DNA of 64,000 nt from positions 27,156,001-27,220,000 of the forward strand of contig NW_024704748.1 in the NCBI RefSeq assembly GCF_018977255.1. The letters run 5' to 3'. A program made the translations under genes and the position numbers. Under the pieces are notes generated by a model, which made no database searches, was not told where the DNA came from, and saw only the letters and a list, made by a program, of their open reading frames with translations. Below are positions 2,194-26,817 of the stretch, piece after piece; the first letter of the stretch is position 1; every line of letters begins with the position of its first letter. This stretch comes from Callorhinchus milii (taxonomy: Eukaryota).

Positions 2194-7342
<5,149 letters not shown>

Positions 7343-9841
7343 TCAGTGTCGTTGGTACAGAAATATAGGGACAGGAGGAGGCCATTCAGCCCCTCGAGCC
7401 TGTTCCTCCAGTCTATAAGATCATGGCTAATCTGTACCTCAACTTCAATTAGCCTCCCTTGCCCCGTATTCCTCAATTCGCTGACCCAAATATCTCTCCA
7501 CCTCAGTCTTGGAAATGTGAATGGATCAAGCACCCCCAGCCTTCTGGAGGGGTTTACACAGATACAACCCCCAACAGGGAATGATTTACAGAAAAAATAA
7601 AATTATGCAAAATTACCCCTTAATAATAATAATAATCCTCGCATTTGATATAGCGCTTTTCACGTCGGGAGGACGTCCCAAAGCGCTTCACAGAACACAC
7701 TGTAAAGTGAATTGACTGTATATTTGTGGGCGAACGCGGCAGCCAATTGTGCACAGCAATGTCCCACAAACAGTCGTAGATTGAAAATGACCAATTTATT
7801 ATTGTTTGGGGTTTTGGAGGGATTATTTTCACTGGATCCCACTAATGTAGCCTCTTTAGAGAGATACAGAGGCCAGTTTTCATGAATTTAACTGTTTATC
7901 TGCAGCCTCTCTGCCCCCACCCTCTGGAACGCCATCCTGGAGCCCCTCCGCCTCGCCCCTTCCATTGCCTCCTACAAAGCCCAACTCAACCGTTCCCCTT
8001 TGACCGAGGTTTCAGTCACTCGCCCACCCCCACCCTCGGGAGTGGGAGGCAGTTGGACAAAAAAATGTGGTCACTCAATCCACGACTGTTTGTGGGACAT
8101 TGCTGTGCAATTGGCTGCCGCATTTCACCCACAAATTACACAATCACTGCGCTTTACAGTCCCTTCCCCTTCGCTTCCTCCCTCGCCTCCTTCAAGGCCG
8201 GTCTCAAGACCCTTCTCTTCGATCGTGCCGTTGGTCGCCCTCCCACTTCTCTGCCTTCCCTCACTCCTTCACCACCCCTCCCCCATACACGGGCCCCGAC
8301 ACCTGACTGTTCAGCGCTTTGGGACCTCCTCTCGACGTGAAAGGCGCTCTATAAATGTAATTTTGTTGTATATTCTGTGAGGCACTTTGAGACATGTGTG
8401 TGTTGTGTGTGTCTGTCTCCCTCTCCCTTCCTTTAAGATAAAGCAGCATATCAAATGCAGGGATTATTAGTAATATTATATTATTATGCAACAGCACGAG
8501 CCTACACATAGTGAAGCACATTATGCTGGGAATGACGTGGCGTGTAATTGGGATATAAACAGCGTGTCCCTGGGCTCAATGCTTCTGCTGTGTGTTGTTT
8601 ACTTCCACGACCTGGACCCAGCACTTTGCACTTGCACGGAGTGTCTTATACACACACATCAGACAGAATTCCACCACTGAGCGCTCACAGTTGGTCTTCA
8701 CTACACAAGAAGCACTCTGCGCGGTGTGAGAATCCCACACAGGGAATCACCCACCAGCCACGCCCCCTCATGAAGGGTAGCGTCCCAGAGAGCTTATTCT
8801 CCCCCCCAACCTCACCAATACCCCTCACCCCCTCCCATCTAGAGTCAGCTGTTGCTTGTGTGTCACTGGGATCTTGACCCTCACTTGCTGCAGTGTCCAC
8901 ACAACCAACAGAGAACAGTGACAGGGACAGGTTTGTGCTTCTCAGGGTAACTTCAGCAAGTTAGAGTAAAGAGCGGAGAGCAATCCTTTCACAATCCTCA
9001 TGGCTCAGTGCATGTCCCAACTGCTCTATTGGGAAGATGCTTTAGCAATTCATTTCTACATTAATTTACCTTTCAAAAAACTATGACTGCTAAACTTGAA
9101 ATATAGACTGACGCAAAACAAATATTCTGAATATTCTCAATTGCACATCCTACTTATAAGAACATAAGAATTTGCGGGTGAAAGAAGACCAAGGTCCATC
9201 CAGTTTGCATTCCACCATCCTGGCAGTCGCTTGACATGTTGTGTCCCAAACTATATACTGTATCCCCAGATATTATTTCCTAACAGAAATTAATTAGTGC
9301 TTGAAAGAATCAACACTTTCTGCTTCCATACGGTTACTATTTACTTAGTAAATATTTATTCACTGTTTACTTAGCTCATGTGGAGAAAATCCTGAGCACA
9401 GACTGGATGGCCCAATTACCTTCTCTCTGTGCTAGAACTGTCTAAATCATTCAACATGTGGGAAGATGATTCATGGCCTGATTAATGTCTGTACGTCTAC
9501 AAACACATCACACAGATTCTGCCTCTCTCTGAGAGCTTCTCATTCTAAGCACCATCCTGAGCTGCTGTGGTAGCGGCTGATTCAATACAATGGATGGTGA
9601 ACAGGTGTGTGTGAGAGGTTGGAAGCACAGCCTGTGTGTCTCATTCCTCACAAGCTTGGTATCAATCTCGGCTCAGTCATAGGCAGGGAGGGTGGACAGG
9701 AGGTTTAAGTAGATTGTACAGCACGGAAACAGGCCATTCAGCCACCTCCATAATATTCATTGCATTTCTGGTTAAGCTCAGACTGTATAGCATTTTGAGG
9801 CGTAGCTTTTACGTGAATGTCAAAAGAAGCTGTTATATCAC

Positions 9842-11842
9842 CTCCACCAGGAAACTCTGGTCCTCCTGCGTCAGGCGGCTGTATGTCACCAGCATGCTCT
9901 GCAACATCTTCCACACCAGGTGTCTTTGCTCTGTGTCCTGTGGCCGCAGCCTGGAAACACAAGGATACGGGACAACAGCACGTCAGATCTGAAGCTTGGT
10001 GCACACGGCCACAAGAAACAAAGAAAGCGTACAATGGGAACCTGGGAGTGAGTGAAGGCTAATCTACCTGTCTACCTGGCAAGGTTTGGCTGTGTCACAG
10101 ATCCCAATTCTGATTAAATAATAAATAGTCATTTCTCCGCATTTTCTGCCTCTTTTGACACCTGAAACAATCCCTAACTCAGGATAGTTTATGCCACTCC
10201 TGAATTGGCTGCTGGAGGGTACCACTTGTTCCATGGGCCGAATGGCCTCCTTCTCCTTCGCCTCTCCCATAAAAATCTCGGTGACTATAAACACATGAAA
10301 TCATCGAGTGTGAAATTGAGCTCTGGCACAAAATACACCACCATATTGTTTAGAGAGACATCGCAGTGTTACATACTCTTTCTTCAGGAGGCTGGCATCC
10401 AGAGTCACCAGGCCAAAATGCAGGTCAATAATTTTCTTCAGCACAAATATCTTGCGTCTCAGATCATCCTCGTTCTCTGAGCCATCGCCGTTCACTGCTA
10501 TGTACGTGCACTCTGCAAACTGAGAGCAGGGACAAAGGTCCCAGAGAGTCAGGTTGAACACAGGAAGAACTTTAGAAGCCTGAACAAACCTGAAACAATT
10601 AACAGCGGAATCACTGATACTCAACCTCACCACCAACCAACCCATTCAAAATGGATACCCACAGCTTGCAATACATTGTGTATCTTCCACCTCTAAATAC
10701 TCACATTGGTAAGAATTGCAATGTGTGATGTGTTCATTAATGTTTGAAAACTGCCACATTAATGGCTGAGGACATTGACTAGTATGCAGGTGTGACCTCC
10801 TACACCCCTCACTCCGTTACATTGGTTGGACCCCAAGTCAATACTTTACTTCAGGCCTAAGCATTATGAATGAAGGGTGAGGGGGGGGAAATAACTGGAC
10901 ACCAGTTGATATCTTCAGTTATCAACAGGGCAGAATTTTCACCTGCGTGTTCGCTAACACCATCACAGATTGCAAATGTCACCCCGAGGTAGTTAATACT
11001 TACAGTCACAGACACAGGTTTGAGTTGCTTACCTGATGCAGGACAAAGAGGTGCTGGTTCTCACTGACGAAGGACGTGTAAGTGTCCGAGAGCTTCTCGT
11101 TCAGAGTAATACAGGAAATGAGAAGTGGAGCAAAGAGTGTGTTGATGCTGTCCTCAGTAGCTGGCACCTGTACACAGAGAGCATGAAATAAAAAGAATAA
11201 TCCTTGCATTTGATATAGAGCCCTATCACGTCATCGAGACATCTCAAAGCACTTCACAGAATATACTGTGTATTTCGTGGGAAAAGCTCAGCAGCACAAT
11301 TGCACACAGCGGTGTCCCACAAACAGCCATGGAGTGGAGTGACCAATTTTACTTGCGGAATTTTTGACCAGGACACCGGGAGACAGAAACTCCCTTCCCA
11401 CATGGGAAATCTCAGCTTGGTTTGGAGACTCTTACAACACGGTAATGGGTTTGTGCATGTGCCCACCTGAACAGCCAGACAGGACCTCATCAATGATTCC
11501 GTGGCACTGACAATCCCCCGGACAAAATTGCTCACTCACTCCATGGCTGTTTGTGGTAAGTTGCTGTGCCCAAATTGGCTGCCACGCTTCACTCACAAAA
11601 CTAAGTCGCTTCACTTTACAGTGTATCCTGTGAAGCGCTTTGAGACGTCTCGAAGATGGGGTAAGGCGCTACCTCAAATGCAAGGATGAAATGCAAGAAT
11701 TATTATGATTACTATTCACCGTTACCTCTCCATGTTTTACTGCTGATTTGGCAAACCTCTGCTGCAGGCTGACGTCAAAGTCCGGATCCGTCCAGTAAAA
11801 CAGGACCTCAGCACTCTCGCTGGCGATGAGGAGGCACTTCAT
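9842..11842 (-). CDS. HPS1: HPS1 (BLOC-3 subunit), coding exons 1-4 (aa 1-168), opposite strand to the rest of the gene
   Basis: Exons 11842-11726 (MKCLLIASESAEVLFYWTDPDF...), 11167-11033 (VPATEDSINTLFAPLLISC...), 10519-10377 (FAECTYIAVNGDGSENEDDLRRK...) and 9950-9842 (LRPQDTEQRHLVW...DQSFLVE). All GT-AG and in phase. Resembles the human N-terminus MKCVLVATEGAEVLFYWTD recalled from memory. Confidence 0.92.
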
Positions 11843-11973
11843 CACCTCGGCCCCAGATTCCCCTCCTCACCTCACCCCAAACAGCCCCTCATCCAGCTCC
11901 GCACACCCGTAAACTGCGGTTAGACATCGCTCAAGGCTCTGGATCAAAAGCAAGGATTGTCATCGTTAATAAT

Positions 11974-12939
11974 GTGGGGAGACCCTGACACACAGCCCCT
12001 GGGGGGTGGGGGAGACCCTGACACACAGCCCCTGGGGGGGGGTGGGGGAGACCCTGACACACAGCCCCTGGGGGTGGGGGAGACCCTGACACACAGCCCC
12101 TGGGGGGGGGTGGGGGAGACCCTGACACACAGCCCCTAGGGGGAGACCCTGACACACAGCCCCTGGGGGGGGAGTGGGGGAGACCCTGACACACAGCCCC
12201 TAGGGGGGGGTGGGGGAGACCCTGACACACAGCCCCTGGGGGTGGGGGAGACCCTGACACACAGCCCCTGGGGGGGGGGGGGGAGACCCTGACACACAGC
12301 CCCTGGGGGGGGGGGAGGGGAGACCCTGACACACAGCCCCTGGGGGGTGGGGGAGACCCTGAATACAGCCCCTGGGGGGTGGGGGTGGGGGAGACCCTGA
12401 CACAACAGCCCCTGGGGGGTGGGGGAGACCCTGACACACAGCCCCTGGGGGGGGGGTGGGGGAGACCCTGACACACAGCCCCTGGGGGGTGGGGGAGACC
12501 CTGACACACAGCCCCTAGGGGGGGGGTGGGGGAGACCCTGACACACAGCCCCTGGGGGGTGGGGGAGACCCTGATATACAGCCCCTGGGGGGTGGGGGAG
12601 ACCCTGACACACAGCCCCTGGGGGGGGGGGTGGGGGAGACCTTGAACACAGCCCCTGGGGGTAAGGGGTGGGGGGGGGGTGGGGGGAGGGGGGAAGGGGT
12701 GGGGAGGGGAGTGGGTTGGGGGGAGGGGGGAGGGGTGGGGGAGGGGAGGGGGGTGGGGAGGGGAGGGGTGGGGTGGGTGGGGGGGGGGGGAAGTGGGGGA
12801 GTGGGTGGGGGAGGGGGGAGGGGGGGGGGGAGGGGTGGGGGAGGGAGAGGGGTGGGGGAGGGTGTGGGGGGGGGGGGAGGGGTGGGGGCGGGGGGGAGGG
12901 GTGGGGTAGTGGGGGGAGGGGGGGGGGGAGGGTGGGTGG
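11974..12939. repeat. Minisatellite (gggggagaccctgacacacagcccctggggg)n followed by poly-G-rich tract
   Basis: About 20 tandem ~31-37-bp units with variable G-runs, running into the N gap. Confidence 0.92.
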
Positions 12940-13305
12940 NNNNNNNNNNNNNNNNNNNNNNNNNTGTGAGAGAGAGAGACAGTGTGTGTGAGAGAAGGGA
13001 GAGAGAGAGAGACAGTGTGTGNNNNNNNNNNNNNNNNNNNNNNNNNNNNNNNNNNNNNNNNNNNNNNNNNNNNNNNNNNNNNNNNNNNNNNNNNNNNNNN
13101 NNNNNNNNNNNNNNNNNNNNNNNNNNNNNNNNNNNNNNNNNNNNNNNNNNNNNNNNNNNNNNNNNNNNNNNNNNNNNNNNNNNNNNNNNNNNNNNNNNNN
13201 NNNNNNNNNNNNNNNNNNNNNNNNNNNNNNNNNNNNNNNNNNNNNNNNNNNNNNNNNNNNNNNNNNNNNNNNNNNNNNNNNNNNNNNNNNNNNNNNNNNN
13301 NNNNN
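12940..13305. other. Assembly gaps (N 12940-12964 and N 13022-13305)
   Basis: Runs of N flanked by G-rich and (GA)n/(GT)n low-complexity sequence. Confidence 1.
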
Positions 13306-13929
13306 AGTGTGTGAGAGAGAGACTGAGAGAGAGAGAGAGAGACAGTGTGTGTGTGAGAGAGAGAGAGAGACTGAGTGTGAGAGAGACACAGAGAGAGACT
13401 GAGTGGGAGACAGACAGACAGAGAGACTGAGTGTGAGAGAGGGGATGAATGAGAAGGAGACTGAGTTGACTCGGGTTCTGGGGAGAGAGACAAACACACT
13501 CATACAAGGAGATACAGAGTCTGAGAGAGGGGGTGAATGACTCAGGCCTTGGGGGGGGGTTGGGGTGGGGGGCGCAGAAAGAGTGACACAGAGAGTGAAA
13601 GAGAAACAGAGATAGAAAGAGAGTGAGAGAGAGGAATAGAAACAGAGAGAGAGAGAGAGTTCTGTAACCCGCCATCCACATAGCGAAGGCTCAAACCCAC
13701 ACTTGTTGGATGTCAAATGACCAACTAGTGACTATCGTTTGTGGGCAGTGGGTGCGGTGCGGTGAGTGGCTCCAGGGTGACATGTTTGGCAATGGACTGT
13801 CGGAATCCAGCCCCCCCCCCCCCTGTGCCGGTCTCCAGTCCGGGTCCTGACTAGGAGGGGCCGCAGTGTCCCAGGGCACTCACTGCTGATGGCAGCACAG
13901 CCCGGCCCGGCTCATCGGCAGGTCCTGGA

Positions 13930-14325
13930 AGGGCCGACCAGTCACTGGGGGCCGGGAATCCTCCCCCTCGGCTCCTGGTAACCCCACAGCCAAAGCCCTA
14001 ACTAACGGGGAGGGGGGTCCTCGCTGGACAAGCAGCGGGAAAGCTGCCGGACAGTGATATCAATGGCCGAGCTGTGTGGGTTTAGGTGGTTAGACTCCCG
14101 CGGTTACCCCAACGCACACTCTGGGGTCCCCCCAAGCCTTGGCTCCTGCCAACCTGCGCCTAATACTTTCCAGCATTAAGTAATCAGGATGTATTCCTCC
14201 AGGGAGAGAGAGAGAGAGTGTGCATCCCATTCCAGACCAGGGGACATTTGTGTACACGCTATACAATATGTGTATCTCTGATTTGTGTACCCGCAATGTG
14301 TTTCTGCGAGTCAGACACACGATTG
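13930..14325 (-). mobile_element. Unclassified interspersed repeat (related copies ~29490-29730, 33425-33620, 54565-54840, 55218-55582)
   Basis: Shared blocks gtgtctgacac..gcagaaac, ctctccctggagggacgca.cctgcttacctaattcc, ggagtctaaccagctaaaaccacac, gtccagctaggaccaccc, gttagggctttggct. This copy is reversed relative to the others. Confidence 0.65.
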
Positions 14326-14822
14326 CCCCCAAAAATAAAAATCTCTGCAATCTTCTGCCTGGGAGCGAGAGACTGAGCCAAGCTGAGATGTACATTTTGA
14401 GGAAACATTATCATAATAATAATCCTCGCATTTGATACAGTGCCTTATCACGTCTTCGAGACGTATCAAAGCGCTTCACAGAATTTACTGTAACGTGAAT
14501 TGACTGCATTGTTAAAGCGGGGCAGAGGAGGGGTGGGGTCTAAGGAGTAATTTCTGGTTTCTGTGAAGTTCGGGTTCTGCAAAGTTCCTAAAATCTCAGT
14601 AATTCAATGTTCCGGCACATTCTTGGCTTGAATGTGAGCCAAACAGAAGATTTAGGGCAGCACATGTCCCCTCAGTTAGGCGGCTAATTCTAGGAGCTTC
14701 TCAAATGTTTTTTAAAAGCCGTAGTTGGGGGTGGGGGGGTGATGGGAATTTTGTATTTAGATTCTAGGCCGAGACCCACAGAGCAAAGGGAATGGCAGAG
14801 CGGAGGAATGGGATTGGGGGAT

Positions 14823-14940
14823 GGGGAGAGAGCAGGGGATTGGGGTTAGGGTACTGGGAGAGAGTAGGGGATTGGGGTTAGGGTACTGGGAGAGAGCAGG
14901 GGATTGGGGTTAGGGTACTGGGAGAGAGCAGGGGATTGGT
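14823..14940. repeat. Short tandem repeat (gggagagagcaggggattggggttagggtact)n
   Basis: About 3.5 copies of a ~32-bp unit. Confidence 0.8.
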
Positions 14941-15423
14941 GTGGGTGATGGGGAAGGAGTAGATTTGAGTAGAAAAAAATGGAGTTAAACAAATGAATGG
15001 CCTCATGTTGGGAGGAAGTCCCGAGGTGTTGGACAGTCAGAGATTTGGACCCAAGCCGGGGTTGGGATCAGGAGGGTTGGCGAGTGGGAGGATGACCGAA
15101 GGTGTGGTCAAAGAGGAAGGTCTTGAGACTGGCCTTGAAGAAGGCGGAGGGAGGAGCATCAGTTGCATCTGATGTGTTTGAACAATGGAGTCCAAGGATT
15201 ATATTATGATATTGTGCGCTGCTGCTGGAATTTAGAAAGCCGTGCGCAGCAGTGCAGGTTTCTTCCCTTCCGCTTCTCACCCTGTGAATCCCGAGAACCA
15301 TTCTTCAAATATTGAGCTAACTGTGTAAACACTGGTGTTGGCTCTGAGCTGCTGCTGTGGGAAGATGGTTCCTGTGCTCTAAATCTCCGTGTGAGTGTCG
15401 TGCTTCCCTTCCTGGGCTTCTTA

Positions 15424-15989
15424 TAATAATAATAATCCCTGCATTTGGTACAGCGCCTTATCGCGTCTTCAAGAAGTCTCAAAGCGCTTCTCAGAATATA
15501 TTGTAAAGTAAATTAACTGTATATTGTGTGGGTGAAACACAGTAGCCAATTGCACAGTCGTGTGGATTGAGTGACCATATTATTATTGTTAGTTTTATTT
15601 AAGGGATTATTACCCCTGAGAAAAGCGATCCACCAATCAACTGACTACCGGGTTCCTACTTACTGCTGGTAAACAGCGGTGTGTGGAGAAGGAAACTTCC
15701 CAACAGTTTCGCCCACCCGGGAATCGAACCCCGGTCCTCTCGCTTGCGATGCAAGTGCCCTAACCCCTCTCGACTCTCTTCCCCCTCCTCGCTCCCTCCC
15801 TTCCCTCCCCTCCCCTCACCCTGACCATTTCCCCTCCTCGCTCCCTCCCTCCCCTCCCCTGACCATTTCCCCCCTGCTCGGTCATGACCCAACTGTACAG
15901 CGCCTTGGGACGTCCTCCTGACGTGAAACGCGCTTTATAAATGGAATCTTGTTGTTGTTGTTGTTGTTGTGTTGAGCTACAGGACTCCC
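15424..15989 (-). mobile_element. tRNA-derived SINE interrupted by an L2 3' fragment (~15765-15971, plus strand)
   Basis: The SINE head ...gtgccctaac|...|tgagctacaggactcc is split by an L2 tail ending in (TTG)n. Confidence 0.8.
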
Positions 15990-16275
15990 AAGATGGTTCC
16001 TATGTTGTAATCTCCTGCTATATAAATGCAAGTTTATTGAATATTATGCAATAAGTGTGATTTACCTGGAGGTATTGCTGTGGGTGTGAGCTCAGTTACT
16101 GCCGCATTTCGTCCACAAAGTCCAGTCACTTCACTTTACAGTGTATCCTGTGAAGTGCTTTGAGATGTCTTAAGAAGTGATAAGCTGCTGTATATCAATA
16201 TAAAAGCGCTGTATTATTATCATTATGCTGTTTACCTGGGAGCTCAGCACAGACTGACGTACACTTTTGTCTCAG

Positions 16276-19200
16276 GCAGTGGAGCGTTTGATCCACCCAC
16301 AGCTGTGTGAGCGCTGCATCGAGTTCCTGGATCGGCAGGTGGTGCAGCAGATAAACGGCCGAGCGGAGCGGGCGAGCGAGGAGGTGGTGCACGCCTTCAT
16401 CCTGGTGCACACCAAGCTGCTGGCATTCTTCTCCAGGTGACACGTTTCCAATACATCCCCAATTGCCTTTCAATTGTTAAACAGATCTTTATTACAAGAG
16501 GTTGGGAACAATTAGGCTGGCTCATTGGTACCCACCTCTTGCTGCCTGTGGCATCACACTGTTTCGTAAATGAGTCCAGGATTCAGCCATGCCTCTGGTA
16601 ACACCATCCCACCTGTTAATAACTCTTTTGTAAGGAAATACTTCCTGGTTTCTGCCCTTCCCACTCCTGACTTGTGTCTTCTGTGCTGTTGCCTGCGCCT
16701 TGGAACGTCCTCCTGACGTGGAAGGCCCTATACAAATGTCATTTTGTTGTTGTTACATTAGTTTTATTTGAAAGTACTGTTCTACTACGGTTACTTTCTC
16801 TGAACATGGCCATTTTAGGAATAAACCAGTGTTAACCGGTGCTCAATAGTGAAGGTCGCTTGAAAATCATGACTGGGATTCATTGGCCTTCCTGTATGTG
16901 AATTGTGAATAGAAATAGCCCCATTAATGCTCTAATGTCACTATTGCTAATCATGCTTTTAATTCCTGCAGAGCATTAAATTCATTACCATTACTATTAA
17001 ATTCTCCTTCCCATTCCTCTCTGCAGTCGTAATGCCAGCTCTGTGAAGCCTTCAGACTTGCTCTCGCTCATCTTAATTGCACAAGACATGTATCCTAGCA
17101 ACGGCCAACTGGAGACACAGGCTGGCAAGGTGAGATTCCCTGGATTTGTATGGGGAGAAGGTGCTAACGGAGAAAGATTACACGTAAAGTATTCTGGGCT
17201 GTACAGGCAGTAAGTTTACCAGCAGTAAGTAGGAACCCGGTTGTTCCTGAATTGGCGGAACAGTTTTCTGGGAGTAATAATCCCTTCAAAATAAAAAAAT
17301 AAATAAAATGTGGTCACTCAATCCACAACTGTCCGTGGGACACTGCTGTGCGCAATTGGCTGCTGCGTTTTGCCCACAAAAATATACAGTCACCACACTT
17401 TATATTCTGTGAAGGGCTTTTAGAATTCTCGAAATATGAGAAGGGACTATATCAAAAGCAAGGATTATTATTATTATCTGTGCTGAATAGCTAATCTCAG
17501 CCAGCACAGTGGTCAGGGCTGTAACCCCCCCCCGGAGCTGGGGAGAGGGGAAATCAATTGTACCCTCGTCCTGATTGCTCTCCTGCTGAAATGTCTCTAC
17601 ATTAACACTGATGCTCATTTGTGTAACAGGATGTAGAGGACCTGACGGTGGCTGAAGAGTTCCACACACCTCAGTCTTCTCCCAGTCCACACGGAGCAGG
17701 TACTTGTGAGAGTTCTTGTTCATCTCTGTTCTCTTTCCTGGAATTTATAAAGTCAGCATAGATCCAGAAATGAGTGTTCCAGCATTCATGCTGTCTTTCG
17801 GGTGAGATGTTTAACATCTGCATGTTGTGTTGGTTCAGATTAATTCGAGGTTCCCATGACACTAATTTAAGGAAGAGCAGGGTGTTTTGGTGTATTCATC
17901 AACATTCCTCTCTCACCCTCAAATTTACCTGAAAAGTTAAGATTCCGTTGCTGTATTTGAGTGATCGTGGGGCAGATGAGCTGTCACTTTTACCTACTTA
18001 TGCCACTCCACCTCGGAGAAACTTTGTGTCATGCACTTTGAGATCTTCCAGCTTGGTGAGCGCTATAACGGTGGCCGTACTTTCAGTTACAACGCTCCGA
18101 AAATCTGGAAAAATGTTGTTCTATTCCTCCGCCTTGCCCCCTCTTTCCCCATCTTCGGGTTGCGCCTGAAGACCTTTCTCTTTGACCATGCCTACGGTCA
18201 CTTCCCCCCAGCTCGATGTTGTCCTCCGCCACTGTCAAGTATTCTGGGGCGTTACCCTGCATGAAGGGCGCTGTGTAAATGCAAGCTGTTGTATATCAGG
18301 CGCCAGCATGATTTGTATGTAGCCATTATAAAGAACTCATTTTAACAGTTCCTAAGATAGCCTTGCAGCACGATCTGCTGATAGCATTTCTGTGAGGGGA
18401 CCCACATTCACGTGTCTTTATGAGCTTCTCTTTATAGCATGTTTGCATTCTCTTACAGTCACACTCTTTAGGATATTAAACTCTCTTTCTCCGCTCCTGC
18501 TGTTTGAGTGCCCTACAAACCTATAACCTCTGACTCGGGTCCTCTCTCTTCAGGAGACCTTGGGATGGCAGGGAGCAGCTCACACACATTCCAATTCACT
18601 GACTCAGAGATACAGGTAAGTGATGGTAATTTATGCCCTGATTGTTACTTACTGTCCTATAGGACAAGTTAAACCCAAAAAGTCTCTGCTAGTTTCTTTT
18701 TCTCCATTTTTTCTCACCATCATGTGACACTATTAATAATCTTTGCATTTGATTTAGTGCCTTATCACATCATTGAGATGTCTCAAAGTGCTTCACAGGA
18801 TGTAGTGTAAAGTGGAGTGACTGTATTTTGTGGGTGAAGCAATATTGAAAAAGAGAATAAAGTTTTCCTTGGTGTCCTGATCAACAATCATCAGATAAAT
18901 TGGTTGTTCACTCCTGTATGGGTGTGTGGACCTTGCTTCCAATATTATAGGCACTTTATCAAATACAAGGATTGTTATGTTAAATATAGTGTACGCTATC
19001 CGGTTTATTCCTGCAAACTAGGGCTAACATTTGAGAGGTGTCTTGTGTGTCTAACTGCTGGTTGGACCACGGATCTGTATTGCTGGGGGAATGGGGTAGA
19101 GGGGCATTGCACACTACTGACATCTCTTTGCTGTGTTTAGATTGCTGAGGACACAGTGCAAGCAGCTTCAGAGAGTTCTGTTCCCAGGAGGATCTTCCTT

Positions 19201-22200
19201 GATGCTAATCTGAAGGAGCACTACTGCCCCATGATGCCTCACAACATGTACTGTATGTCCCTCTGGCCGGCCATCTCACTAGTGCTCCTCACAAAGGTCA
19301 GCAGGACTCATGATCAAAGCAGTTATAGATATAAGGGAGTTTCCTCCCCCTCCGATGTTAAATGCCCAGCACCACGTTCCATCTGACAGGGAGTGATGCC
19401 TCAGACACCACTGATCTACTCTGCTCCCTTCCCCTCCTGTTCTCTTAAAGCTTACCTTTCTCTTTTCCTGTTCCTGGTATGTGGCCTCTGGTGCCTTACC
19501 CGAGAAGCTCAGTGGGACAGCACTCTGGATTCTGAGTCAGAAGGTTGTGGGTTCAAACCCCACACAGGGACTTTGGACTCCCAGTCTGGGCTGACACGCC
19601 AGTGTAAATTAGCTAGTTTTGCAGTTGTTCACTCTCCCAAGTCTGTCCTGTGAGTCTTTGGGTCCTGATTGGGTGTGGGGTGTGGGGGAGAGAGGAATAC
19701 AAAAGTGATAATGAACGTGGCCAAATTGGGTAGTTTAAAGATCACATTTTCCAGTTGACGTGTGAAGAACAAAGCGGTGACTTACAGCTGGGATGGTTGG
19801 GCCAGGTTTCACCGATTCACATCTGTTTGATATCTGACAGATCCCGTCCAGCCACGTCGCTGTGTCCCTCCACCAGCTTTTAGACGCATTCACGGTGCTG
19901 GAGGCGAAGCTGAATGAAGGACAGGAAGTTGGGCACGCTCCTCGCGCTTACCCAAACATGGCGGATCTCCGGCACAGGATGGACAAATTCATCAAGGCTG
20001 TGGCAACCCGGGAGCGACCGGTAACAATAACAATAATAATCCTTGCATTGTGCGTCTTAAAACATCTCAAAGCGCTTCACAGAATATACTGTAAAGTGGA
20101 ATGATTGGGTATTTTGTGGGCGAAACACGGCAGCCAAGAGATGCCATTTTATTGCTATTTGACTTGTTTTATCTAAGAGTCACTGAGGTAACGGTAGTAG
20201 CCCAGTTTGTCTGTGTGGCTGTTTCACTCTTGTTGATGTGTAAATTGTGAGGAGGGAGGAGGGCAGAGTGAGATGCTCCTCTTGCCCACAATCAGAGATT
20301 GAGGGATTGATTTTGTGGTATTTCTTAATTAAGAAATCAGGAAGTGCGTGACACTGGCTGGTGGGAATGTGCTATGGCTTGCTCTATTTTGGCAGCGGTT
20401 TTCCCTTCAGTTACCAGAGGCATCCTCACTTAGGTTTCTTAATTAAGAAATTTGAGTGAAGCAATCCCTCAAGAAATATTGTGAAATTGGTGCCTCTGTT
20501 TGAAGCCACCTTTGGTGCAGCAGATTGCAACATGTCCAATGCCCCTCTCCCCCCACCAACTCTCCCCGCCCCACCCCCACACCCAAACATATGTCTATAA
20601 TGCCTGATGTCTTTTGATCTTTTTAGTGCAGATCGTGGCATCAAGCCTGTAAAAGCTAATGATGTGTTGAATCATTGTGTAGTTGCAGTACGCCTGGGCA
20701 GACTTCAAGAGCAAAGCCTTCTCCAAACCTGACACTGGGAACCATCACGAGTGAGTATAAGTGGAAGGTGCTTCAGATATTTGCTTTGTGGACTTATGTG
20801 AAGGGGGCGGAGACTCCTGGAGTAAGAGCTTTGAATACCGAATGTTTCCCCAACTCTGCTTTGCTTTGGCACTTCGGGATTGTGTTCAGTTGCAGGATGC
20901 CCTTTGGAAACCTATCCCACAATCCCTTCGCCTCGCTCCCTCCCTTGCCTCCTTCAAGGCATGTCTCAAGACCTTCCTTTTTGACGTGGCTTTGGGCACC
21001 CTCCTAACCCCACCCAACCCTAACCCCCACCTCCGCCCCCCCTGATCCGAACTGTCTGCTCGGGTCCAACTCCATGACTGTCCAGCGGGACGCCCTCCCG
21101 ACTTGAAAGGCGCTGTGTAAATGTAATGTGTTGTTGTGGTTGAAGCTGAAGTGGCATCCAGTGGTTGGAAAGATACTGCTTTCCTGACGTGCGGAGGATG
21201 AGTGTGTATCAGCTGCAGTTTTTGCGTGATTGACCGTGTTGACTTCCCTTGCAGTCTATTACAGGCCTGTCGTAACGTGAAGTCCCAGCTGTGCTCGGTG
21301 TACCAACAGCGCTTCCTGCTCAGGGCTGGCAGGGAGTGTCAGCACCTCTCCTCAAACCTCCAGGCCAGAGTCCTCGAAACTGTGCAGTATGTATTCCACC
21401 ACTGAGCTTCCCTTCCTGGGACTGGGCTGCTGAGCAAAATGTACCCTTTCCTAAGGAAATGAGGAGATAAATAGTGTTCGGTTATTCCTGTTAATTGGCT
21501 AAATTGTAAGCAGGGATTTAAGTTCACGATTGTCACCGGAAGAAATCAGGAGAAGTTAGAATCAACTCTTTCCAGCAAGGTTCCCTCTGAGATCTCTTGT
21601 GGATAAAGGGATATGGTGTTAAGGCGGGTAGGTGGAGTTAGAATAGATCAGCCATGATCTTATTGAATGGCAGGGCAGGCTAGAGGGGCTGAGTGGCCTA
21701 CTCCTGCTCCTGATTCTTATGTTCTATGCTCTTCGTGACTGAGGAACCGTAGCTTATCCATTCATTCCTCACAGCTCTAACAGTGGTAGTTAGCCTCGTT
21801 GCTCTCCTCTGCTCCCGATATCCCTTGATAACCTTGATGGGGAGGCAAAGGCAGGTAATTGGAGTTGAGGTATAGATCGGTCATGATCTTATAGAATGGT
21901 GGAACAGGCTCGAGGGGCTGAATGGCCTACTACTGTTCCTAAGTTCCTGCCTCTAGATTTTCAACAGTTCCCAATACAGGATAATTAGCAGAAATTTCAT
22001 GCTGGAACCAGGTTTGTAGCTCAGTGGTTAGAGCACTTACCTCGCAAGCGAGAGACCTGTGTTCAATTCCCAGTAGGGCGAAATGTTGGGAAAGTTTCCT
22101 TGCTCCACACACCTGTTTACGTAGCAGTAAGTAGGAACCCGGTTGTTAGTCAATTGGTAGATCGCTTTTTCAGGGGTAATAATTCCTTAAAAAAATAATT

Positions 22201-25200
22201 AATTGGTCACTTCTATCTACGACTGTTTGTGGAACACTGCTGCCACGTTTCACCCACAAAATACAGTCATTACACTTTACAGTGTATCCTGTGAAGTGCT
22301 TTGAAACGTCTCGAAGACATGATAAGGCGCTATATCAAATGCAAGTATTTTTATTGTTCCAGGAATAAATGGGACAGTGCTTTGTATTGTTGGTGTCAGT
22401 GCTCTCATCTGTTTGTGTCACTTTCAGAGGCAAGCTGATGGACTGGAAGGAATTTCTCTTAGTGAAGAGCAAGAGGAACGTCACCATGATCTCATATCCA
22501 TCTTAGTATATCTACATCTCAAAGCCCTCCACACAATCTCTCCCAATGTTATTATTATAATAATAATTCTTACATTTAATACAGCGCCTTACCATTTCAT
22601 CGAGATGTCTCAAAGCCCTTCACATGATGTACTGTAAAGTGCAGTGACTGTGTATTTTGTGGGCGAATTTGTTCTGTTATATACAACCTTCCTGTGCAGA
22701 GATGTGGCTGTGACACTGAAAATTGTGCAAGATTCAAATGAACCTTTCTCGCCGTCCTTCCCCTTTCTGAAAGAAAGGAGCAGGTCCCTATCCTGCTCTC
22801 ACTCCCAGGGATGGGCTTGTAACGAGACAAACTCCTTAGTTGTTCTGAACAAGAATTGGGATTGTACTCATCTTTTTTTCGAAGCCCTCTTTATATCAGC
22901 CATTTTCTCCTTGCTCGTCCCATTGTTCACTCATGTTTCAGCGATTTATCATTGTCTGCTCCCACTCTGGAACTCCATCTCGGAGTCCCTGGCCGCGCCT
23001 GCCCCCCTTCCCACCTTCAAAGTCTTACCTTTTTGTCTGTTCTTTCCATCCCCCAAGCATAGGCTCAAATTGTCAGGCGCTTTGAAATGTCCTCCTGACG
23101 TGAAAGGCGCAACATAAATGTAAATTGTTATCTTTAACCTGGCCTGTACGCATCTGCAAGATTTTCCTGGGCTGATTCATTTCATCTATGTGGATCGGAC
23201 AGCGGGTCAGATGATCGCACCTGCCATCAACATGATTGAAAAACCCACCTCTGAGCTGGGGAAAGGGCCGGTGGCGGCTTTCATCAAAAACAAGGTGACT
23301 CCCTAGTGCAGAGCAGAAACTTGGAGAATCAGCCACTGGTTGGGTTTATCAAGTCCTGTTTCAAAGGCTTTAAGTTTTCATTTGAATGGGCCTGGCAGCT
23401 GTGTGAGTTCGGGAGATGGCATTTGAATATGGGACTGACTTTCAATTTTGCATTTCTCATATTCCAATCCGGAATACCCTCCCCCTATTCCCTCGCTCGT
23501 GTCCAACCCATCCGTTATGTAGCGCTCCGGGACGCCATCTTACATGAAAGGTGCTATATAAATGCAAGTTGTTCACGATAAGAGTCGAGATAAGTTCTAG
23601 ATAATAATAAAAAGCTTTGCATTTGTCATAACATCTCCATGTCACTGAGATGTCTCAAAGCGCTTCACAGAATATATTGTAAAGTTAATTGACTGGCAAA
23701 TGATCCACCAATTGACTAACAACCGGGTTCTAACTTACTGAGAGGTAAACAGAATTGTGTGGAGTAAGGAAACTTGCCCAACATTTCACCCTGCCCGGGA
23801 ATCAATCTAAACATTCTTTTTCTCGTGCCCTTGACATATCCTTCACATTCCTTAGCATTGTAATGCTTGCAATTACATTTGATTTGTGTGAGTTCCCTTC
23901 TCTCTGCAAGAGTGGAAACTCAGCACTGGTCATGCACGGATCGGTACACTTGCCAAGCCTTGTTACAGTGGCAATGAATTGTGACTTGCTTTGTTGTCTA
24001 AGCTGTGCGGGCCTGTCTTTAACAACGCACCTTCTGTGTCATTAGGTGTGGTCTCTGGTTGGTTTGGGACGCCGGTACCTGCAGAAGGGATACACCACAC
24101 TCACCTTCAGGGACGGAGATTACTACTGCTGTTATTTCCTCTGGTTTGAGAATGAAACTGTAGGTATCGATCAGATGTTTTAGTAAAGATCAGAAAAACT
24201 CCTCAAGGTTGAGAGATCTGTCAGCCTTCTCTCACTCGCATAGCAGTGACTGCCCTTTGTTGCTCAGCAATGTCATGAATAATATATAATCTATTCAAAA
24301 TACAGTCAAATTATCCACAAGCACCGAGGGTTGAAGCCCCACGTCGGGACTTGAATAACACAGTCTAAGCTGAATGCAGTTCTAGGGATGTGTTACATTG
24401 TCGGAGGTGCCGTCTTTTGGATGAGACATTAAACCTGTCTGCCTGTTCAGGTGGATGTTAAAGATCCTATGGCACTATTTGAAAAGATAGGGGAGTTTCT
24501 CTCTCTCTCTGTCCTGGACAACAATCCCCCAAATAAAATTGGACGCTCACTCCATAGCTGTTTGTGGGACACTGCTGCGCGCAATTGGCTGCCTTGTTTC
24601 ACTCACAAAACACAGTCACTGCACTTTACAGTGTTTCCTGTGAAGCTCTTCGAGCCGTCTCGAAGACGTGATAAAGCGCTAATTAAATGCAAGGAATATT
24701 AGTGTTATTGTTATGAACTCCCTAATCCTGGTTCTGTCCCATTTTATCTTCAGGGTTTGTTCTGTTCCTCACTGAAAGTTTCCCTTCTCTCTGATTCTTC
24801 TCCTTTCCATTGCTCTTTCTAATATCAAAACTGCTATTAATTCACTCACCTGAGGTTTGAATTGTTTTGAGATGTCCTCCTGATAAGTGAAAGACACTAT
24901 ATAAATGTAAACTGTATTGTCTTTCTTGCTTTTCTCCTCTGATTTTAATCTGTGTGACCTTGGCAAGGAACCGTCCTCCATTGCACTATTCTACTCTTCC
25001 ACACTGACTGACTGACTGATTGCTCCTGCATTCATCCAGTCTGTCAGATCCTTATCTCCTGACACTTATGAATGTCTCACTAGTATTGCCAGAAAAATAT
25101 ACCTCCACCTTTCGCCTGTCTCTCACTTCAGCTTCTGCTACTCCTGGTCAATCTTTCCCTCTGGGTAATATGCTCGTCATCATCCTATTCTTAACATGAT

Positions 25201-26817
25201 CCCTCTTGTTCTTAATCTGCCACATGGCTGCTAAACGCCAAGACACTACCCGCGTGAAAGGCACAATATAAATACAAGTTGTTGCCGTTCTATCCTGTTA
25301 ATTTGCAACATTATGGAAGCTGCTCTTTTTAAATCGACTCTCAAATTATCATTGAAAGCTCTGGCCTATTCGTTAGTCATCGCTGATTTGCTGCTCTGCT
25401 GGAGATCTTGTGTCTCTCACACTCTGCTCATGATACAGTTTACAATGATATAGCACGTTTCACGCCATGTTCCTGGAAAGGAGGGAAATGGGCAGCTGCC
25501 ACTGCTTGTGGCTCTGCCCTGGTCAGTGAACAGTGGATTATGTGTATTTTGCAATGTTAGCTTGCCTCGTTCTGGAGGAAAGTAATGCCTCGTTCCAGAG
25601 TTGGTTCTATTTGCCTTTGGATTGAATGGCTTTCTCTGAGCACTCTCCCTCAATCCCTTTGCTTGGCCCCCTCCTTCCCCATCTTCAGGTCGCACCTAAA
25701 GGCTTTCCTCTTCGACCATGCCTACGGTCATCTCCCTCCAGCTCGGCATCGTGCCCCGCCATTGTCAAGCATACTGGGACACCACCCTGCATGAGGGGCG
25801 CTATGTAATTGCAAGTTGTTGTTGTCTTGTGTTCATGTCTGGAGGACCACCATCCCCGTACTGCCCTAACCTGAGTGTTTCTCTCGCCGTGTGCCCAGGG
25901 ATACAAGCTGCCAGGTATTGAGCTGCCCATGCTGTCTGACGACTCAGCACCCATCGGCATTTTAACTGGAGACTACTACAGGTACACAATCAGAGCCTCA
26001 GCAGGGGTGAGGTACAGGACTGACTCCAGCCTGTGTGGAGCCTGGTTATAGAAAGAGGTGTATTGGTGTAATAGAACACCAGCTCTCTGGGGAGGAGGGG
26101 AGGAGGTTTATACACACTGCTCTGGAGTCAGCAATCTCTTCTGTAACATCCAGTGGTTAACTGAGCCACATGTAGGACAGGTGAGGGATTGGTCACAGGC
26201 CAGACAAGTTACAGTCCGAATGCCCTCACCCTATCTGAAGGGAAGATCATCAGAGCTATCAGTAAGGCTCCTAGTGCTTCCTGGGACCAGTAAAATCTGC
26301 ACCAAGAGGCCAGGCTATCAACCAACATCCCAGGTTCTAAGTTCCAAGTCCCCTCATGGTGCATAAGCAATGTCTTGGCTTACCCCTGGGTGGTTGGGAT
26401 GAAGGGGGTAAGAATTCTCTCGTAGGTTTCAAATAGTCTTGATCATGTATGCCATTACCCCGGTACCATATTACCCTTTGTACTATTAGCCCTAAAAGCT
26501 GGTCTGTAATTCTCAGCTTCCTCCATTTTATCCTAGTACAGAATGTGTTTTGAACCTTGGTGCAACCCTCAGTTTAGGTAAGGATCCCAGGCTTGTGCTA
26601 TAGGGCTTTGCGGTGTCTGAAGTCTCTAATGTGTGGCCTCTCACTCTCCCCCAGGAAACTACTGCGATATTACAGCAAGAACCACAGCTCGGAGGTGATC
26701 AAGTGCTTTGAACTGCTGACCATCCACTTGGGTGTGGTCCCCACGCAGTTCATCATTCAGCAGTGCTGTGATTTAGCTCGCAAGCTGTGGGAGCCCTCCC
26801 GCATCCCACTGCTCTAA
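16276..26817 (+). CDS. HPS1: HPS1 (BLOC-3 subunit), coding exons 5-17
   Basis: Exons 16276-16436 ([14 protein letters not shown]...), 17027-17129, 17630-17699, 18554-18615, 19141-19296 ([16 protein letters not shown]), 19841-20020, 20683 or 20689-20750, 21255-21386, 22428-22493, 23150-23294 ([13 protein letters not shown]), 24046-24159, 25899-25981, 26655-26817 (...[14 protein letters not shown]). All phases are consistent. About 666-668 aa when joined to exons 1-4. Confidence 0.95.
22014..22356 (+). mobile_element. tRNA-derived SINE, near full length
   Basis: tgtagctcagtggttagagcac...gttcaattccc head, Deu-like core, tail aaatgcaagtattttt. Confidence 0.8.
22494..23149 (+). other. U12-type (minor spliceosome) AT-AC intron of HPS1
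   Basis: 5' end ATATCCATC (consensus ATATCCTT), branch-site-like TCTTTAAC at 23131-23138, AC at 23148-23149. Splicing here gives ...RNVTMIS/HLQDFPG..., collinear with human RNITMVSYLEDFPG. Confidence 0.88.
24325..24705 (+). mobile_element. DeuSINE-type element, long family (similar copies ~5280-5645, 5915-6290, 51660-52130 minus; 56968-57382, 63300-63675 plus)
   Basis: ...ggatgagacattaaac...ctgcctgttcaggtggatgttaaagatcc...gtcctgg.caacaatcccc...gctgtttgtgggacactgctg...gtgaagc...aaatgcaagg. Resembles SacSINE1/AmnSINE1 Deu-domain elements as recalled. Confidence 0.75.

Follow-up and report, generated by a model that had tools for sequence, protein, structure and literature searches.

Why should the exons of a single vertebrate gene be read from opposite strands? 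HPS1 raises this question in a genome build (G000) of the elephant shark, Callorhinchus milii, where its first four coding exons and its other thirteen face in opposite directions beside the gene PI4K2A, in a 64,000-nucleotide (nt) stretch that we refer to as the window (G000:C7:27,156,001-27,220,000; positions given without a prefix are those of the window). Our favoured answer, held with moderate confidence, is that exons 1-4 run backwards through a gap fill that was written into the build in reverse orientation. The flip is real in the sequence file but probably not a feature of the species.

Strand split of HPS1

An initial annotation of the window had assigned HPS1 exons 1-4 to the minus strand and exons 5-17 to the plus strand, with a phase 0 end after exon 4 and both halves intact, and all of this was borne out. 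With C. milii HPS1 models as tblastn queries, residues 1-168 fall on the minus strand and the remainder on the plus strand, and a splice-aware chain of 17 exons translates with 0 mismatches to model P0243 (XP_007903863.2, 668 amino acids, aa). The coding exons are as follows:

11726-11842, minus strand: HPS1 coding exon 1, 117 nt (a spliced contig, X8, extends upstream to at least 11879)
11033-11167, minus strand: HPS1 coding exon 2, 135 nt (splice-aware chain)
10377-10519, minus strand: HPS1 coding exon 3, 143 nt (splice-aware chain)
9842-9950, minus strand: HPS1 coding exon 4, 109 nt, phase 0 end (splice-aware chain)
16276-26817, plus strand: HPS1 coding exons 5-17, with longin domains 2 and 3, from exon 5 (16276-16436, 161 nt) through the exon at 26655-26817

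Longin domain 1 (PF19036, residues 2-158) lies within the 168 aa encoded by exons 1-4, whose 504 nt of coding sequence finish in phase 0 at the end of exon 4. The sequence of exon 5 agrees fully with C. milii HPS1 models and matches residues 170-222 of human HPS1 in PDB 8zwc. Exons of one mRNA thus lie on opposite strands, in this build only. No second copy of HPS1 was found, all 17 of the HPS1 matches in G000 falling within the window, and an alternate haplotig was ruled out: the junction stretch matches only itself and two repeat copies.

A separate observation concerns HPS1 coding intron 13 (22494-23149, plus strand), which is an AT-AC intron. Feng et al. in 1997 reportedly noted a rare AT-AC intron in the mouse HPS1 gene, to which this one may correspond.

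Contigs and gene models from other samples

Contigs from 4 of 24 listed runs were aligned to 7000-11950: X1 and X2, which are genome-sized and come from one study of unrecorded kind, and X5 and X8, which we call RNA-like, no run being recorded as RNA. Statements about contigs cover the matches listed, with 153,594 further pieces outside that list; tables of contig joints and loose ends, dominated by contigs of repeats, were set aside. Contigs of both X1 and X2 match the window over 8450-8763 and then continue with 51 and 50 differing letters, respectively, while another X1 contig matches from 8764 onwards after 12 differing letters; the differing letters are known by count, not by identity. 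This argues that the X1 and X2 samples lack the window's 8763/8764 junction at any appreciable level, with the proviso that contigs drop rare variants.

The RNA-like contigs bear on how exon 4 is continued. The X8 contig (1,578 nt) has exons 1-4 spliced together and 1,036 letters beyond, and the X5 contig (417 nt) has exons 3-4 spliced and 160 letters beyond. Both also match position 9841, which is G on the sense strand; exon 5 begins with G, whereas PI4K2A exon 2 begins with A. The X5 overhang of 160 plus the shared G makes 161 nt, the length of HPS1 exon 5, and neither the X5 nor the X8 exon-4 contig has a piece on PI4K2A exon 2 (7110-7312). Overhang length and shared G together make a strong case for a spliced exon 4-exon 5 junction in X5 and X8. 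The continuations fit exon 5 and not PI4K2A, through length and the G rather than letter by letter. No HPS1/PI4K2A fusion RNA was seen in these two RNA-like runs.

Other protein models of the species also join exons 1-4 to exon 5, namely XP_007903863.1 and the UniRef entries A0A4W3I4Y5 and A0A4W3I8C5. Both UniRef models contain intron read-through and so were likely built on genomic DNA. At residue 428 the window encodes P, against A in XP_007903863.1 and A0A4W3I4Y5; because joined exon 4-exon 5 models differ from the window in this way, another C. milii build with a collinear HPS1 likely exists, to judge from these protein sequences. On a contig equal in length to C7 (28,267,339 nt), NCBI lists a 170-aa HPS1 model (P0244), which reads into intron 4, beside the 668-aa model. 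Models in NCBI practice may be patched from transcripts, and the 668-aa model would hold exons 1-4 only if these had been patched in.

These data also speak to trans-splicing, which the initial annotation had offered as an option. Under this explanation the inversion would be fixed in the species and the HPS1 mRNA joined from opposite-strand transcripts, as at Drosophila mod(mdg4). Both loci join in mRNA four 5' exons to intact 3' exons from the opposite strand (excerpts of PMC13490949), and at HPS1 both halves are intact and the spliced RNA past exon 4 fits exon 5. At mod(mdg4), by contrast, the split is the normal locus, with 3' exons on both strands that have their own promoters (same excerpts), whereas the other samples do not show the HPS1 layout; no separate promoter was identified for HPS1 exons 5-17, on contigs that do not reveal RNA starts. 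Trans-splicing is unneeded, because DNA contigs in X1 and X2 diverge from the window after 8763 and the other genome-derived models of the species are collinear; both findings argue against the split layout as the species' normal locus, and PI4K2A would need the same rescue. We consider this explanation extremely improbable, and opposite-strand trans-splicing at HPS1 in this vertebrate is very unlikely.

Probable ends of the flipped block

The initial annotation had proposed an ancestral head-to-head layout of PI4K2A and HPS1, disturbed by one inversion with ends in 7313-9841 and 11843-16275. This proposal is supported, and the ends can be placed at 8763/8764 and at about 16015/16016. A single flip of 8764-16015 likely explains the strand split. 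The features that define it are these:

8764-16015, no strand: flipped block with a nominal length of 7,252 bases, divided by a 25-N gap into 4,176 on the left and 3,051 on the right; left end from contig breaks, right end from a split repeat
8763/8764, no strand: left junction, where contigs break in X1 and X2
8764-8797, minus strand: inner half of a common dispersed repeat, cut at 8764, with no outer half beyond the cut
16016-16040, plus strand: orphan outer half of the same repeat, from the repeat profile; putative right junction at 16015/16016

The left end is fixed by DNA of other samples, and the exact right end is one that we infer from the halves of the repeat, not from reads. The repeat at 8764-8797 is presumably of the L2/short interspersed nuclear element (SINE)-tail type. 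Over 264 kilobases (kb), its inner halves are joined to an outer half in 18 of 19 cases, the exception being the copy at 8764-8797. An outer-half profile was built from 57 other copies of the repeat in 1.064 megabases (Mb); within 11843-16275 its best match begins at 16016 on the plus strand, with 25.5 bits against -15.3 bits for the continuation as assembled, and has no inner half before it, while the runner-up at 15931 (18.2 bits) belongs to an intact element. Across the 1.064 Mb, an outer half is missing from 6 of 58 inner-half matches, the 8764 copy included, and an inner half from 5 of 66 outer halves; at the rate set by the 4 other orphans, chance would yield about 0.01 in the 4.1-kb candidate strand. 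Flipping 8764-16015 restores the repeat with the spacing seen in intact copies, gives HPS1 an intron 4 of 1,338 nt (the other HPS1 introns span 426-1,739 nt) and moves the gap to the expected place of PI4K2A exon 1 and the shared promoter region. A flip of only the sequence left of the gap was also considered and rejected, as it places PI4K2A exons 2-9 inside HPS1 intron 4; the initial annotation had rightly noted that flipping the whole left side at the gap does not tidy the locus.

Both of the ends as placed are blunt, with no letters shared at the junctions. Between the two candidate intervals no inverted repeat pair exceeds 130 nt (identity 76-89% for those longer than 25 nt), and none lies at the ends. 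Repeat-mediated inversions, by non-allelic recombination, arise between oppositely oriented copies of SINEs or long interspersed nuclear elements. The HPS1 block resembles them as a small inversion in repeat-rich introns and differs in that no inverted repeat pair, and no oppositely oriented similar repeats, occupy the two ends, one of which splits a single element. The repeat-mediated routes favoured in the initial annotation, whether mis-assembly or inversion through SINE/L2 copies, fail because the ends are blunt and outside inverted repeats. Its ranking of options survives to the extent that mis-assembly, which it placed first, agrees with our reading; the repeat-mediated route to it is unsupported.

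Could the block be flipped but its ends misplaced? The break at 8763/8764 would then be a small indel between samples, and the flip would really end at other points of the two intervals, or at the gap. The X1 and X2 overhangs, whose letters are known by count, leave room for this, as does the behaviour of split repeats in general. A first scan for split repeats returned dozens of false pairs per region. A scan of all 66 tiles of the 1.064 Mb returned two reciprocal inverted pairs, one of them false (ABCC2-like exons inside 71345-74677 point in the same direction as those outside) and the other with no exons inside, and it missed the HPS1 case. Split-repeat signatures that are not anchored by other evidence can mislead. 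At HPS1, by contrast, the contigs fix the break independently, at the very cut in the repeat and within the range allowed by the exon positions; the partner half lies on the right strand, spaced as in intact copies. We regard misplaced ends as improbable.

PI4K2A and the assembly gap

The neighbour of HPS1 is damaged as well, and the gap inside the flipped block lies in low-complexity and simple-repeat sequence:

2194-7312, minus strand: PI4K2A exons 2-9; exon 2 is 7312-7112, with a phase 0 start
11976-12939, no strand: minisatellite with units of about 33-37 nt, then a G-rich low-complexity tract up to the gap
12940-12964, no strand: 25-N run, interpreted as a nominal-length assembly gap
12965-13660, no strand: GA-rich simple-repeat tract right of the gap, containing a 284-N run

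N runs occur in the window at 12940-12964 and 13022-13305 only, which confirms the statement of the initial annotation that HPS1 exons 1-4 and PI4K2A exons 2-9 sit in N-free sequence. Exactly 25 N make up 9 of the 20 N runs in 1.064 Mb of C7, a length that we take to be the nominal gap convention of builds. PI4K2A exon 1 was not found in G000 with either a full-length or an exon-1 query, although the same genome search found exon 1 of a PI4K2A paralog on C1, and no C. milii PI4K2A protein with exon 1 was present among the best 120 of 1,668 and the best 120 of 325 matches. The missing exon and the shared promoter region likely sit in the 25-N gap. The absence of this exon, and the match in frame between HPS1 exon 4 and PI4K2A exon 2, had both been missed by the initial annotation.

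PI4K2A and HPS1 thus likely stand head to head here (2194-26817), and a promoter common to both is possible. Both genes have been tied to melanosome or lysosome-related-organelle traffic (excerpts of PMC9524207, PMC3708732 and PMC3502862). In all 14 other cartilaginous fishes for which both genes are listed, the two lie on contigs of equal size, and in 7 of the 14 their accessions are no more than 5 numbers apart. By this indirect evidence the genes look adjacent in these fishes; accession and contig data give no orientation. The papers found on HPS1 with PI4K2A and on C. milii HPS1, judged by titles and the starts of abstracts, do not describe the locus.

A probable gap fill in reverse orientation

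The sequence of events that we favour would be the following. The animal itself would carry PI4K2A and HPS1 head to head on either side of a GC- and GA-rich promoter region through which sequencing never passed. The original contigs would have ended at 8763 and resumed at 16016, each contig end would have been extended by 3-4 kb of reads toward the unsequenceable core, and 25 N would have been left between the two extensions. The whole fill, consisting of both extensions and the 25 N, would then have been inserted reverse-complemented. With the fill turned back, HPS1 would be an ordinary gene spliced in cis, its intron 4 measuring 1,338 nt, and PI4K2A exon 1 would fall in the gap.

The contig break, the split repeat, the RNA-like contigs, the collinear models, the blunt ends and the missing PI4K2A exon 1 all speak for this account, and two further findings point to a gap fill. 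The rearranged block encloses the residual 25-N gap, which divides it into 4.2 and 3.1 kb, as expected of a gap fill. Also, 2 of 9 other 25-N gaps examined (8 on C7 and 1 on C1, the latter not chosen at random) bear direct duplications, of 3,123 and 3,286 nt, whose copies differ mostly by small indels. It is because of these indel-rich 3-kb duplications that gap filling is favoured. The 3,123-nt duplication (97.8%; G000:C7:27,069,175-27,072,257 and 27,076,486-27,079,592) lies across a 25-N gap, copies one exon and has 37 alignment gaps versus 16 substitutions. The copied exon presumably belongs to a ZDHHC16-like gene, near which EXOSC1-like exons are consistent with one another. The 3,286-nt duplication (98.2%; G000:C1:836,934-840,219 and 842,949-846,187) lies beside SPRY1 and has 17 gaps versus 13 substitutions, with all gaps on one side: 17 of 17 indels are extra letters in the first copy, and the second copy begins immediately after the 25-N gap. 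A fold-back read at the SPRY1 gap was rejected as a candidate, the sequences being only 68-70% alike. The duplications fit read-derived extensions of about 3 kb from low-coverage long reads.

Misassemblies from gap closing are known. In a yeast test, PBJelly raised their number from 29 to 102 (excerpts of PMC6324547), and greedy gap closures without spanning reads have been described (excerpts of 10.1101/2020.05.22.110833). The HPS1 locus is like the cases in these excerpts in that the rearrangement has a residual gap at its centre, in GC-rich, low-complexity DNA, and that read-derived duplicates occur at other gaps of the same build. It is unlike them in that the whole fill is reversed, which the excerpts at hand do not describe.

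Several points weigh against this account. We found no description of reverse-written gap fills in the literature on gap closing, including the available parts of PMC7081964, 10.1101/240747 and PMC6733440, and the reverse-insertion step is one that we infer. Around the 8 other 25-N gaps on C7 no convincing flip was seen, in a scan that also missed the HPS1 case. The overhang letters at the left junction are known by count, and the right end is placed by the repeat halves; the absence of a contig bridging 8763/8764 applies to the matches listed. The exons inside the flipped block are error-free. Moreover, a clean, reciprocal and blunt flip is also the expected look of an end-joining inversion, and a real inversion in the assembled animal would give the same picture, since the reads come from other samples. 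Heterozygous inversions have indeed been mistaken for assembly errors (excerpts of 10.1101/2020.05.22.110833).

A possible private inversion in the assembled animal

A balanced inversion of at least 7 kb, made by blunt end-joining in the assembled animal and probably on one chromosome, would break HPS1 intron 4 and PI4K2A intron 1. We think this possible but doubtful. The breakpoint evidence, that is the contig break at 8763/8764 and the split repeat, serves it equally, and its junctions are blunt and N-free; of the reciprocal junctions, the right one is rebuilt from repeat halves and the left overhang is a count of letters. The end of HPS1 exon 4 and the start of PI4K2A exon 2 are both in phase 0. 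Loss of hps1 is recessive in medaka (excerpts of PMC9526055), so a carrier would look normal, and residue 428 is not the same in the other build, which implies that haplotypes vary at the locus. Against these stand the 25-N gap enclosed by the block, with halves matched in size to the read-derived duplicates at other gaps; the NCBI minus-half model P0244 (170 aa), which reads into intron 4 and shows no fusion; and the contigs among the matches listed, where the inversion was not seen in either of the two genome-sized runs.

The closest known parallel is the set of haplotype-specific inversions in a zebra finch trio, where one build is likewise inverted relative to other data and where, as here, only reads of the same animal decide (excerpts of 10.1101/2020.05.22.110833). 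Those inversions span 4.5-12.5 Mb and, unlike the HPS1 block, have read and optical-map support in the same excerpts; the HPS1 block is about 7 kb and breaks two genes.

If the flip were real, it would create two reciprocal in-frame fusion genes from head-to-head lysosome-organelle genes in a wild elephant shark, which we judge unlikely. HPS1 exons 1-4 would be in frame with PI4K2A exons 2-9 across a new intron of 2,529 nt, so that longin domain 1 (residues 2-158) would be followed by a PI4K2A kinase domain short of its initial residues, given that PF00454 begins at residue 127 in whale-shark PI4K2A and exon 2 near residue 139. The part lost with exon 1 is presumably the glycine-rich loop of the kinase. 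The reciprocal fusion would join the PI4K2A N-terminus to HPS1 exons 5-17 (longins 2-3), in a frame that depends on a phase 0 end of PI4K2A exon 1, as the start of exon 2 suggests.

Neighbouring genes and other candidate flips

Right of HPS1 (27000-64000 and beyond on C7), neighbouring genes are seen as translated exons. We take these to be a sialyltransferase-like gene near 29 kb, a COX15-like gene near 49 kb (minus strand), a CUTC-like gene near 56-58 kb (plus strand) and an ABCC2-like gene from about 60 kb (plus strand), followed by DNMBP-like and CPN1-like genes.

Two other candidate flips were observed on C7. One, a blunt-flip candidate of 2.9 kb (G000:C7:27,272,397-27,275,327), lies 2.1 kb from a 25-N gap between genes that are presumably DNMBP-like and CPN1-like; a SINE-like repeat cut at one end resumes seamlessly on the other strand, and there are no exons inside. 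The other, a weak candidate of 13 kb (G000:C7:27,528,723-27,541,955), encloses a 25-N gap flanked by a 1,087-nt inverted pair (93.6%) and may be a mere internal SINE deletion.

Significance

Opposite-strand trans-splicing in a vertebrate would be important, and a real inversion here would be a natural reciprocal exon swap between head-to-head genes, but as a private allele of one animal. As it stands, this build breaks both HPS1 and PI4K2A, so that it is no sound basis for claims about the loss, synteny or structure of either gene in C. milii, and sequence lying a few kb or less from its 25-N gaps should be treated with suspicion.

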